Source: Chrysomallon squamiferum
Taxonomy: Eukaryota; Animalia; Mollusca
Assembly: GCA_012295275.1 (NCBI GenBank)
Contig: CM022678.1
Coordinates: 16,802,001 to 16,866,000, forward strand
DNA: 64,000 nt
Direction: 5' to 3'
Part shown: positions 1,280 through 64,000 of the stretch, piece after piece
How the letters are laid out: each line of letters opens with the position of its first letter
How positions within the stretch are numbered: the stretch's first letter is position 1
Notes under the pieces: generated by a model
Seen by the model: only the letters and a program-made list of their open reading frames with translations
Database searches by the model: none
What the model was told of the DNA's origin: nothing
Made by a program: the position numbers and the translations under genes

Positions 1280-2877
1280 CTCGATAGGGTAAAGCGACCA
1301 CAAACAACAGGACATTGTACAATTTTTAGCCAAATATACGTATTTTTGCTTTCTTCTTTAAATATTTAACATGTGAAGATAATGTATTACGCATAGAAGA
1401 ACAGATTCTGGGAACTGGAATAACTTTCTCTCTTACAATTTTACAAGAACATTGAGATACCCGATTCATGTGGACGCAAGTTGAATTAATAATGACCTCG
1501 GTAATAATTTTGCTGTTTGTTTTAACTCAGACAGGTAAGTTTATTTAAATTCGTTAAAAATGTGTTTGAGTGTGCACGTGTGTTTTGCCTGAATTATGTT
1601 AGACACACTTTAAAATAAATTACTTCATTTGTATTGTGTTAAAAATAACTTTATACGCAAATAAAAAAATTTGGACAGGAAAACACAGACTCAAACATTT
1701 TTTTTTTAGTATTCCTAAATCCTCCTTGAACTTCAATTAGTATATCACTACAAGATACAGTTTTAATCTATTGTTTAACACACTAATTAATAAATGTAAT
1801 AGATGTCATTTTTTCCTTGCCGGCCTTTTAGTTTTATTTAAGAACAATGAGTGATATTTAAAAATATCTATGCGGTGTTTTTATTCCGATAGCCATTACC
1901 TCATCACGAGTGAAGGAAATATTTTCGGCGTGATTCGACTTCTATTCTAAATATAGACATGAGACATTGCAGAAATATGAAAAACATGTTAAAACAGTGT
2001 GTTACGATTAGAAGAACAGACACTGGATAACCTTTTATTTAACACATAAATAAAAATAAAAGTAATTCCATCGAAATAAACCTTAATTTACAAAACTGAG
2101 TACACTATAAAAATACCTGGGAGCTGTTTCTTTTTCTGTAGCCGTGACGTCATTACATATAGGATGTACCCTTTTTTGTCTATAGCAGAGGCCGTTAACC
2201 TTGTCGATAGTGCCGATAGGCAGCCGTTTGACTGAATGCTGTGAGCGTTTTGCCTTTTTTCTAGGGTTCCTTCCTACGATGATCATTGTTTGTGTAGCCT
2301 GAATCCAATTAATAGCGGCTTTTGTGTTCTTCCATTAGTGTGACAGAACGGAGGAAGTCTCCATTTTCAGTGCGACAACTGCTTCAAAAGCGAGAGCGAT
2401 TTTCGGCAACTTGTTTTTACGTCATATGAGGAACTGTTAAATATTTAATCATTAAACTTTGATGAATAATTACTTAAACTATTACCTAAATTTTAGTAAA
2501 TAGTATTTAAGTTTAAAATCTTAATTCTTAAATTATTGTGTGTTTAATGGATGTTTAAAGTGGGTGATAACATGAAAAATAGTTGTCTCGCTTTATTCTA
2601 AATATTATCTCTCGGCACAAAGACACAGGTTTATGCTATGTACAGGATATGGTAGTCAAAATAGAAGAAGAAAAACAATAGTATCAAAAATGAAAAACAA
2701 AACTCTTTAAGAATAAAAAAACACTAATAATAATAAATGAAACAAACATTAGAAAAAATTAAATAAATAAAATTTGACAAAAACTAATTTTATAACCAAA
2801 ACAATGTACATATTTGTGTACATATGTATGTATGCATGCGTGCATGTATATTTGCATGTATATATGTTAGTCAGTGT

Positions 2878-4353
2878 GTAAAACCAGTCATTTGGCCTAA
2901 TGCCTGAAATGTTTGGGCGTTTAGCCTAACAGCCAACGCCGTCAGCCGTGTGGACTAATGTCTAAAATTTCCAAGGATTAGGCCATCCGACTGAAATAGA
3001 CCTCTAGTCATTAGGCAAAATGACTGAATGAAAACGAATGACTTACAATGACATGAAAACATTTGTTTCGAAACACATCTATTTATTACAGCTGTTCAAA
3101 TTTGAGTGACATCTTGAATTGCAGAAAAGACTCTGCTTAAAACAATTAAAACATTTTGTTTCACACATCTTTGTTCCCGCACATTTGCATTTCACAAAAC
3201 CTTGTCGACCTGCGGAATTACTCCTTTGACACTGCTGCTCTAAGATACATTGTGCATTCGCTGATCACGTCATCGTCATCAGTATTTACAATCACTCCCT
3301 GCGGGTTCCAGGGATCACCACGGCCCCTGTTCTCGGCTTCAATAGTCACTGCCACGTTGTCTCCTTCTTGTCTAGCGGTCAACACAACACAACTGCGTTT
3401 TATAATCCGCTCAGCTTGCTAAAATTGAGCATATCTGGCGAGTTTTCGCTTGGTGCCAATGTACGATGTCGACACAGCAACTGTTTTCGGCAGCAACTGG
3501 TCATCCTTGGAGTTGGAAGGTAGCTGTTCAAACTCACAGTTTGGTAGCGGTCGCTAAAATGAAATAAATTTACAGATAAATATGTGGTGTTTTGAAAATT
3601 GCGGGAAGGCAAATTTCATAATATTTGTTCTAGCAATTTTGTGTACTTGACCAGTCAAACTGCTAGAATTTATCCTGAATGTTACAATACTTGTTAGAAA
3701 TGTATGAATGACATTCGCCATAAAAAAAGACAAACGGTTCTCCTCAAGAGAACATACTCCAGTTCCTTGCGTCATTCCCGAAGGCTACTAACAGATCTCT
3801 AATGTCTGAGTTGCGTCGCTCTACAGAGTCCTGGCTTCGGACGTGTCTTCGTTTCCCGTGCACAGTAACCAAATCGGTCCACAATCCCATCAGTTCCTTG
3901 ACTTCAATAACTGTAAACGCGGATTCGTTGACACTTTGCAAGACACGAGAAGCTCCAAACATCAGGAAGACGTTAGAGAATACAGAAGTTAGTCAAATTA
4001 CCCTGGTAAACCGCGACCCACTTGTACTTTCTACTTGGTAAGGACTGCATGTCCACAAGATTCACTTGACCACGTGACGAAAACTCCTTAGTCAGAATAG
4101 GTTTTATTACCGCAGCTTTGGTTGTTGTCCTCTTGTGTTTCTGTTGACAGTCCGTGCATAACGACTTGAACAGTTCGATAGCTTCACGTGTCACATTCAC
4201 ACATTTTTGGGATAGTTCTTTCAGCATCCGATCACGTCCACCGTGGTCTTTTGAGAGGTGCGCCTGCTTGATAACTTCAAAGGTATATTCAATGGAAACG
4301 TAGTAGAGAGGAGTTTCTTCATCTGTTTGGCGCTTCGTAGTCTGTTTCTGCAC
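2878..4353 (-). mobile_element. Decayed KRBA2/SCAND3-like (Ginger/Gypsy-integrase-type) transposase element in intron 1 of copy A
   Basis: Minus-strand fragments: HHCC zinc finger (AHLSKDHGGRDRM...LCTDCQQK), integrase core (RGQVNLVDMQ; FGASRVLQSVNES...HGKRRHVRSQDSVERRN) and C-terminal GFVKCKC...CNSRCHSNLNSCNK* (stop at 3079-3081); multiple frameshifts. TGT-starting end at ~2878 with inverted 18-mers cagtcatttggcctaatg / cattaggcaaaatgactg. Confidence 0.8.
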
Positions 4354-62800: not shown

Positions 62801-64000
62801 TACATTATTTCTCTTTTAATTTCAGTAAGTCAACACAGTTAATATGATTTGCTCGTGCACCCAATCCTTCTGTCTGCTCTCTCAATTTATCTTTTAATTA
62901 CTGCAAATGTGGTAGCAGTGCACACACACCCTCCTCTAAATCTCGGTAAATTAATACGAGTAATTCTATTTTTATACGAGGGGTGTTCTGAGGGTTATTA
63001 CCATGGTGATGGCGACAGCTGTCTTTCCTTTTCTGTCAAAGACACAAAACATTCACCAAGTTACAAAGAAAAATGTAATATATTTTGTTCCAGTAAGAAA
63101 ACACATGGTAAAGATTGTAATAAGACCTGTAGGGACAGATGCTTGGATAGAATATGTTACAAATAGACGAGTGATTGTGAACGTTGTCCTTCTCGATTCT
63201 CTGGACCACGTTGTCAGCAGCACTGTAATAACACCGACGTCAAAGGTTTCTGCATCGGTGACTGTTTCTCTGGGTTCTTTGGTCCAAAGTGCGAAGAAGG
63301 GTGTCCAGTCGGATGTAAAGACAAAGTCTGCAACAAAACGACGGGAGAGTGTTCACTATGCCCTGAAGGATTTTGGGATACAACTTGTCAGCTTCGTTGT
63401 TCAGATAACTGTCTAAACAATTCCAGTAATGAAAGCGGCAAATGTTCTGTAGGTTGTAAAGTTGGGTTTTTCGGAATGAACTGCTCAAAGACATGCAACG
63501 CGAACTGTCTACATCAGGTATGTAAGAGGGAAAACAGATCGTGTACGGATGGCTGTGTTTCTAGTGAATACTACGGAGACTTTTGCGACAAAGACTGTCC
63601 TCATCGTTGTGTGAATTCCACCTGTGATCGTACAACTGGGAAATGTAAGAACAGATGGAAAGGAACGGATATTTATGGCACATTTTGCAACAATTCTTGT
63701 GGCTCAGTATGTCGTGTTCGATGTGAAAATATCTCCGAATACGTTCTATGCAGGGCGGTTTGTGTCAGCGGAAGAAAGGGAGAACATTAATGATAATAAT
63801 AATAGTAATAATAATAATGAAAATAACATCAAGAAGAAATATTTAGGAAGAAGGAAAAAATAAAAAATAACATAATCGTAAAAGTTCCTTTAGTGCAGTG
63901 ATGACAATAATTGCAATAACAGTTGTGATTATAAATTAATCTTTCAATTTCCGTATCTAGAAAAAGGAAGAAAAGATCTAAAAAGAATCAGCGACGTGCA
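59844..64000 (+). pseudogene. Copy F: disabled receptor paralogue running off the window
   Basis: ISRE 59844-59856 present but exon 1 deleted (~59960); ShKT exon 62014-62118 (CKDNADLCTFEICKEHEMDCMKTCHVC); EGF acceptor AG>AT (62974-62975); TAG 63164-63166; deletion at ~63788 removes the 3' EGF part and TM exon; basic exon starts at 63961. Confidence 0.85.

Follow-up and report, generated by a model that had tools for sequence, protein, structure and literature searches.

A tandem array of six paralogous receptor genes was identified in a 64,000-nucleotide stretch of the Chrysomallon squamiferum genome (contig CM022678.1, positions 16,802,001 to 16,866,000), here referred to as the window. One of the six, copy C, is intact and encodes a signal peptide, a short six-cysteine tip resembling ShKT domains, a stalk of epidermal growth factor (EGF)-like repeats, a transmembrane (TM) helix and a classical protein tyrosine phosphatase (PTP) domain with intact catalytic motifs, predicted to be of the active type. 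By analogy with receptor clusters of other snails, we lean, on balance, towards a family of variable immune recognition receptors that would be inducible by interferon regulatory factors (IRFs) and accompanied by phosphatase-less partners.

The window has 30.6% GC, zero N and many microsatellites. With the exons of copy C as queries against the window, six stalk exons were located, in tandem and all on the plus strand, ~79–87% identical in DNA (exon search and window self-comparison), and the repeated blocks of the self-comparison all lie in one orientation. This bears out the six tandem paralogues proposed in an earlier interpretation made from the letters of the window (hereafter the sequence-only reading). 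Its view that the array runs beyond both ends of the window also held, since bases 1–630 match DNA located 3′ of the last exon in other copies and copy F is cut off at position 64000. The four broken copies it had counted are A, B, E and F, disrupted by stops and frameshifts, by loss of splice sites or by deleted exons (Table 1); in copy B, PTP exons 8–11 are also missing and exon 12 has a stop. The intact phosphatase-bearing copy was recovered as copy C, at a length of 932 instead of the expected 935 amino acids. As for the expected intact copy without PTP, copy D is indeed open and devoid of PTP exons, but its reading frame ends in exon 6 at a stop derived from a frameshift; it may be a phosphatase-less gene or, equally, a 3′-deleted copy.

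The tip exon was found in only 4 of the 6 copies (A, C, D and F). Stalk length differs among copies by whole units: copy C has a 96-bp tandem duplication at 28926–29114 and lacks one unit of copies A and D. Remnants of promoters and signal-peptide exons, at least five in all, are scattered between the genes; besides the orphan pair in Table 1, they lie at ~24390, ~37960, ~48590 and ~59850. Paralogues, pseudogenes and fragments together support the birth-and-death evolution that had been suggested for the locus. An assembly artefact was rejected because the copies are 13–21% different in DNA, each with its own lesions; a conserved single-copy gene was likewise rejected, given the paralogues in the window and the RNA and DNA contigs of further relatives. 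Two repeat arrays accompany the copies. About six tandem units of ~490 bp occupy 12421–15421, at the junction between the broken end of copy A and the mid-stalk start of copy B, and a 31-bp minisatellite array (53441–53987) lies in the stalk–TM intron of copy D, its unit being present once in copy C.

The model of copy C was assembled from genomic sequence and has GT-AG borders at 12/12 introns, consistent phases and one open frame. Its stalk exon encodes 68 cysteines in 397 amino acids; the 11 repeat-closing G-x-x-C-x3-C motifs and the flanking partial units amount to ~12 repeats, in agreement with the EGF stalk of about 12 repeats that had been read earlier, and the order of signal peptide, tip, EGF stalk, TM and PTP is supported by the model as well. 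No significant EGF family from Pfam was found in the window exons. The ectodomain of copy C consists of tip and stalk only, with no F5/8 (galactose-binding/fucolectin) match by Pfam.

In the cytosolic part, PF00102 matches 5 of the 7 PTP exons of copy C, in order, the remaining two being too short to score, and the domain gave 282 bits against a D1 profile built from 8 homologues. The KNRY loop, the HC(X)5R motif, the general-acid Asp and both Gln of the Q loop are all present. The WPD loop reads WMD, with the Asp kept, versus WPD in 8/8 aligned homologues. A second PTP domain was searched for with a D2 profile of 8 homologues and rejected: among 2,725 six-frame segments the profile matched only D1-type exons of copies C and B, and nothing between 35.2 and 46.6 kb, that is, between copy C and the next gene. 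Copy C thus has one PTP domain.

The tip of copy C has the cysteine spacing C-x6-C-x4-C-x7-C-x3-C-x2-C, and the same x6-x4-x7-x3-x2 spacing occurs in copy D; all six cysteines and the closing C-x3-C-x2-C are retained in 4/4 tips. Pfam ShK (PF01549) matched none of the four window tips at E ≤ 10 and none of the four tip-bearing homologues described below. A tip profile search among 1.84 billion proteins returned one protein only at E ≤ 0.001, a six-repeat protein (E 5.5e-8, summed over its 6 repeats) which, at 35.4 bits, lies above the cut-off of 20.9 bits for Pfam ShK. When a profile of the four tips and two limpet tips was compared with PDB, the top two matches were AsK132958 (5wcv) and BgK (1bgk), with non-significant E values of 0.28 and 0.37, and the full-length matches (5 of 29) were all ShK-type, at E ≥ 0.28. 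The four-tip profile alone placed non-ShK chance matches first and the ShK-like OspTx2b last of 27. Atlas gave a weak ShK lead for the tip (0.78). Structure was predicted twice for the tip, each time with low confidence (pLDDT 57–58), and both fold searches were blank, which speaks neither for nor against the fold. From cysteine frame and profile matches, we consider it quite likely that the tip adopts the ShK fold. Of the ShKT-like tip in the sequence-only reading, the six-cysteine frame and the profile link to ShK proteins therefore stand, but the tip is carried by 4 of 6 copies and is missed by Pfam ShK in all of them. AsK132958 differs from copies C and D in having x6-x4-x8-x3-x2 spacing, and the window tip is membrane-tethered whereas AsK132958 and BgK are secreted.

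Tip and stalk evolve differently. Between copies C and D, the ratio of amino-acid-changing to silent substitution rates (dN/dS) of the stalk is 0.37 (bootstrap 0.25–0.53), which indicates purifying selection, and the stalks of several copies are under such selection; for the tip the ratio is 0.91, with an interval of 0.28–3.8. The ratio of changing to silent differences in the tip exceeded that of the stalk in 3/3 disjoint pairings of the four tip-bearing copies, two of them pseudogenes (Fisher p 0.011, 0.046 and 0.002), so the variable tip noticed earlier was confirmed as the faster part. Positive selection on the tip was not demonstrated, as the excess of changing (pN) over silent (pS) differences was non-significant. 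In the TM segment pN is about equal to pS. The basic juxtamembrane exon of copy D (54533–54639) differs from that of copy C mostly by amino-acid changes (pN 0.28, pS 0.145). The intron between tip and stalk (27217–28093 vs 51060–51909) has a divergence of 0.125, compared with silent-site divergences of 0.32 in the stalk and 0.23 in the tip exon; gene conversion or constraint on the intron is a possible cause of this low value.

Upstream of the signal-peptide exons, we detected the motif GGAAACNGAAAC, whose consensus we take to be that of the interferon-stimulated response element (ISRE). It occurs 5 times in the window against 0.03 expected by chance, the sites other than that of copy C being at 1267, 22306, 46629 and 59844. 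At four of the five sites a signal-peptide exon follows 220–235 nt downstream; the fifth site is in a homologous promoter that has lost this exon. Two other aligned promoter remnants differ by a single base in the second half-site. When 7 promoter copies are aligned, the motif is the best-conserved 13-nt window of 200 columns (0.956 vs a mean of 0.70). As the promoter copies share ancestry, this represents one motif kept and not five independent events; with that reservation, the IRF motifs of the sequence-only reading were confirmed. A looser IRF pattern, GAAANNGAAA, had 38 matches and was not used as evidence. In several copies a TATA-like hexamer follows the ISRE-like motif at ~25–30 nt (~25250 and homologous promoters), and a conserved TGTTTAT block was seen upstream in the receptor promoters. 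Two oyster factors, IRF2 and IRF8, drive ISRE reporters in human cells (PMC5557890).

Contigs of four sequencing runs were placed on 27070–29600; X1 is of unknown kind and holds 41% of the window's words, while X2–X4 are RNA. The RNA contig closest to copy C, from X4, carries the tip exon with 2 differences from copy C in 111 letters, both of them amino-acid changing, and runs on for 30 letters that match copy C exon 1 without a mismatch. The signal-to-tip junction was also found in X3, and an in-frame stalk-to-TM splice in X2, each in a paralogue. The tip-to-stalk joint was absent among the joints listed for the RNA contigs, a further 4 joints and 180 loose ends being outside the listing. RNA contigs end at 27216 and begin at 28092–28097, which fits splicing and does not demonstrate that joint, and some RNA contigs also span the intron. 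The RNA check of predicted junctions thus confirmed signal-to-tip and stalk-to-TM splicing, but not the link between tip and stalk. The contigs of X1 are DNA-like, with exon and intron covered alike: 1,763 contigs lie on 2.5 kb, 224 of them at ≥99% identity and the others at 85–99%, and up to 44 contigs differ at one site. They point to many relatives beyond the window, from which no copy number is derivable.

To place the family among known proteins, the stalk was searched against protein collections. Of 215 long candidates, 16 were homologues: 13 named proteins of molluscs, one with an archaeal label and two without a name. Another 5 came from 83 candidates of near length, and no close relative (above 35% identity) was found. 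PF00102 is present in 8 of the 16 long homologues, and five PTP-bearing homologues of the 8 scanned have two PTP stretches each. The long homologues are automatically named MEGF or 'cell death abnormality protein 1-like', and in Atlas the stalk falls among laminin-EGF clusters of molluscs (0.92, below the recognition threshold). A juxtamembrane exon search found 0 homologues among 264 candidates; the stalk had no PDB sequence match at E ≤ 0.001, and none of its 36 pattern matches in metagenome contigs was confirmed. MEGF10, CED-1 and SCARF1-2 are, like copy C, type I membrane proteins with a stalk of laminin-EGF-like repeats. They have no PTP domain and are built of ~43-aa units with eight cysteines, unlike the units of ~32 aa and six cysteines in the copy C stalk. 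In Argopecten irradians, a like EGF stalk and TM are joined to a tyrosine-kinase domain instead of a phosphatase (P0005), which suggests paired kinase and phosphatase receptors on one type of ectodomain.

A six-cysteine module directly after the signal peptide was identified in 4 of 21 stalk homologues, two from abalone and two from limpet. Among 22 proteins, the four-tip profile gave E 2e-4 for P0003, 3e-4 for P0021, 0.07 for P0004 and 0.35 for P0019, and one non-tip stretch of P0001 scored 0.06. The abalone proteins (P0003 of Haliotis cracherodii and P0004 of H. rufescens, annotated as uncharacterised or 'cell death abnormality protein 1-like') have, like copy C, a signal peptide, a six-cysteine tip, an EGF stalk, a TM and PTP, with the tip closing in C-x-K-T-C-x2-C; P0003 shows 30% identity over residues 94–920 of copy C. 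They differ from copy C in their size (~1,530 aa), longer stalk and tip loops and tandem PTP, and lack an ShK Pfam match. The limpet proteins (P0019 and P0021 of Patella vulgata, MEGF10-like) likewise have an EGF stalk and, right behind the signal peptide, a short tip with similar spacing; unlike in copy C, a galactose-binding domain stands between tip and stalk, and the models are without PTP.

The closest described systems are in Biomphalaria. In the SudRes1 resistance region of B. sudanica, 10 of 23 genes are MEGF genes, of which three encode receptor PTPs combining a galactose-binding domain with tandem PTP, and the region shows paralogous duplication, gene presence/absence and EGF loss (PMC12297450). 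In B. glabrata, five subgroups of 'scavenger class F-like' receptors, with or without two PTP domains, lie among many fragments in the LG5R region (PMC13712769). The SudRes1 genes and the LG5R 1C genes share with copy C a signal peptide, a multiple-EGF stalk, one TM helix and a cytosolic PTP. Their clusters also resemble the window array in having tandem paralogues, fragments, EGF loss and PTP-less members (subgroup 1A). On the other hand, the Biomphalaria receptors carry a galactose-binding/fucolectin domain where copy C has the ShKT-like tip, they have two PTP domains and copy C one, and no antistasin neighbour as in their clusters was seen in the window. This likeness is at the level of architecture, and no Biomphalaria sequence was among the search results. 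Being like the snail receptors without the galactose-binding domain and tandem PTP, copy C is a variant of a described receptor type.

The proposal of an undescribed family consequently did not survive: EGF-stalk receptor PTPs are common in molluscs, and a decaying tandem cluster of them as candidate immune genes is already published. The claim that the ShKT, EGF and PTP combination is uncharacterised fails in so far as the combination occurs in the two abalone proteins, and stands in that no paper was found naming an ShK-like tip on MEGF receptor phosphatases; in the abalone and limpet proteins the tip is unannotated. ShK occurs in neither of the main texts of PMC12297450 and PMC13712769, as far as these are accessible, nor in the readable supplements of the former; the 9 ShKT rows in the InterPro table of PMC13712769 belong to region LG11L and not LG5R (10 of 27 supplementary files covered). 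A review of snail ShKT proteins deals, in its accessible part, with secreted CAP-ShK-EGF proteins and leaves phosphatases unmentioned (PMC6409789). Literature searches for ShK with phosphatase and EGF in molluscs or lophotrochozoans, mostly without subscription journals, gave venom and astacin papers or none, and no description of cephalopod receptors of this architecture was found.

If the genes are immune receptors, infection signals would turn them on through an IRF factor. The glycosylated stalk would keep the tip off the membrane, where it might bind a surface ligand of a microbe, a parasite or damaged self. Ligand binding could alter clustering and hence the access of the PTP to phosphotyrosine substrates, which would determine the tyrosine-kinase signalling threshold. 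Copies lacking the phosphatase, copy D for example, may act as decoys or partner receptors, and unequal crossing-over would supply new copies, stalk lengths changed by whole repeats and leftover fragments. The same receptor type in Biomphalaria clusters associated with schistosome resistance favours this reading, as do the mollusc homologues of the stalk with their PTP, the faster change of the tip beside a constrained stalk, the two amino-acid changes in the tip of the X4 contig, the ISRE-like motif together with the oyster reporter results, and the many relatives indicated by X1. Several points weigh against it. The excess of pN over pS in the tip is non-significant (p 0.12–0.53), two of the four compared tips come from pseudogenes, and the TM and juxtamembrane segments also change fast, so that relaxed constraint is possible. 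In the promoter, a second block (columns ~72–87) is almost as conserved as the ISRE-like motif (0.945 vs 0.956). The proline of the WPD loop is replaced in copy C, the stop of copy D comes from a frameshift and the listed joints do not include a splice from tip to stalk. The snail link is a genetic association and not a tested function.

The phosphatase could instead work by size exclusion. CD45 and CD148 are phosphatases kept out of close cell contacts in this manner, and the stalk would then be a mere spacer, below a weakly constrained, drifting tip that has no specific ligand. A long stalk with 10 N-glycosylation sequons, a repeat number that differs among copies and a tip dN/dS near 1 (with the wide interval given above) agree with such a role, but the retention of six cysteines and closing motif in 4/4 tips and the same position of the tip in abalone and limpet proteins do not, nor does a spacer call for many paralogues; we hold this to be unlikely. 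It is similarly improbable that we deal with a non-immune receptor for clearance, adhesion or development, of the MEGF10/CED-1 type, surrounded by mostly neutral debris of an array with one working gene. Such debris would be in keeping with four broken copies of six and a truncated fifth, and the automatic names of the homologues point the same way; purifying selection on several stalks, spliced RNA from more than one paralogue and the kept ISRE-like motif argue otherwise.

In an allorecognition locus, a tip would recognise either a matching tip or a self ligand that is polymorphic, and an inhibitory 'self' signal would come from the phosphatase; the variable distal domain, the tandem paralogues and the inhibitory-type enzyme could be accommodated in this way. 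An IRF-type motif suits a response to infection better, and the literature search found no paper on this link to allorecognition; we give the proposal little credence. Hence, of the immune or allorecognition likeness put forward earlier, the immune role is retained as the best, inferred reading, while nothing points to allorecognition in particular. Finally, a tip with an ShKT-like cysteine frame might modulate potassium or other ion channels in the manner of ShK toxins and couple channel contact to the phosphatase. BgK has a Lys-Tyr pair in a loop that is acidic, without that pair, in 4/4 window tips, which makes channel block unlikely. The closest solved peptide, AsK132958, has ShK-like disulfides and was inactive on the Kv channels tested (PMC5793123). 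Channel modulation is accordingly very improbable.

Beyond the preferred immune reading, we tentatively raise a wider possibility, which we consider doubtful at present. A short ShK-fold module missed by domain libraries may be the variable ligand-binding tip of mollusc-wide receptors, swappable with or added to a galactose-binding domain and coupled to tandem, single or no PTP, and in this genome an expansion may have turned it into a large set of IRF-inducible receptors, some signalling and others decoys. If so, a toxin scaffold would be used as an innate immune recognition domain, and ShKT would gain a receptor recognition role beyond that of toxin or enzyme appendage. Molluscs have no antibodies, and the receptors which decide parasite compatibility are largely unknown; snail genetics implicates MEGF receptor phosphatases, for which the binding module has so far been a lectin domain only. 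A variable tip of 30 residues is easy to make and test for binding, and the conserved ISRE-like motif offers a direct test of placement downstream of the mollusc IRF pathway.

Table 1. Receptor copies, promoter features and copy C exons in the window
Feature	Position	Strand	Remarks
Copy A	1492..12169	+	Broken: stop in stalk, TM exon running into stops, frameshift in exon 6, two PTP exons only
Copy B	15450..19480	+	Broken: no signal and tip exons, stalk partial and frameshifted
Orphan promoter and signal-peptide exon	22306..22576	+	
ISRE/IRF-E-like motif	25215..25226	+	225 nt upstream of copy C start codon
Copy C	25441..35200	+	Intact, 13 exons, 932 aa
Copy C exon 1, signal peptide	25441..25483	+	Loose end of a spliced RNA contig identical in 30/30 letters
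Copy C exon 2, ShKT-like tip	27109..27216	+	36 codons, six Cys, phase 1-1
Copy C exon 3, EGF-like stalk	28094..29284	+	Single 1,191-bp exon, ~12 six-cysteine units of ~32 aa
Copy C exon 4, TM helix	29508..29601	+	Stalk-to-TM splice in RNA contig of a paralogue
Copy C exons 5-6, juxtamembrane	30029-30138, 30729-31153	+	Basic, then acidic and tyrosine-bearing
Copy C exons 7-13, one classical PTP domain and the stop	31538..35200	+	
Copy D	46864..~55300	+	6 exons, open 568 aa: signal, tip, stalk, TM, short tail; PTP exons deleted
Copy E	56961..57578	+	Broken: 5′ part of stalk joined directly to last exon
Copy F	62013..64000	+	Broken: tip kept; stalk without its acceptor and with a stop; TM exon deleted

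Two further elements were seen within and between the receptor copies. A decayed integrase-type transposon fragment (Integrase_H2C2, E 5e-5) lies on the minus strand at 3082–4377, in intron 1 of copy A. Also on the minus strand, at 40887–41945, there is an intronless DnaJ copy of the DNAJB type (Pfam DnaJ_C) whose frame holds a single stop, close to the J-domain end. It sits within nested inverted and direct repeats spanning ~38030–45090 and looks like a retrocopy borne by a repeat-bounded mobile element. Immediately upstream of the expected position of the ISRE-like motif, these repeats break one of the promoter remnants left by the receptor family.

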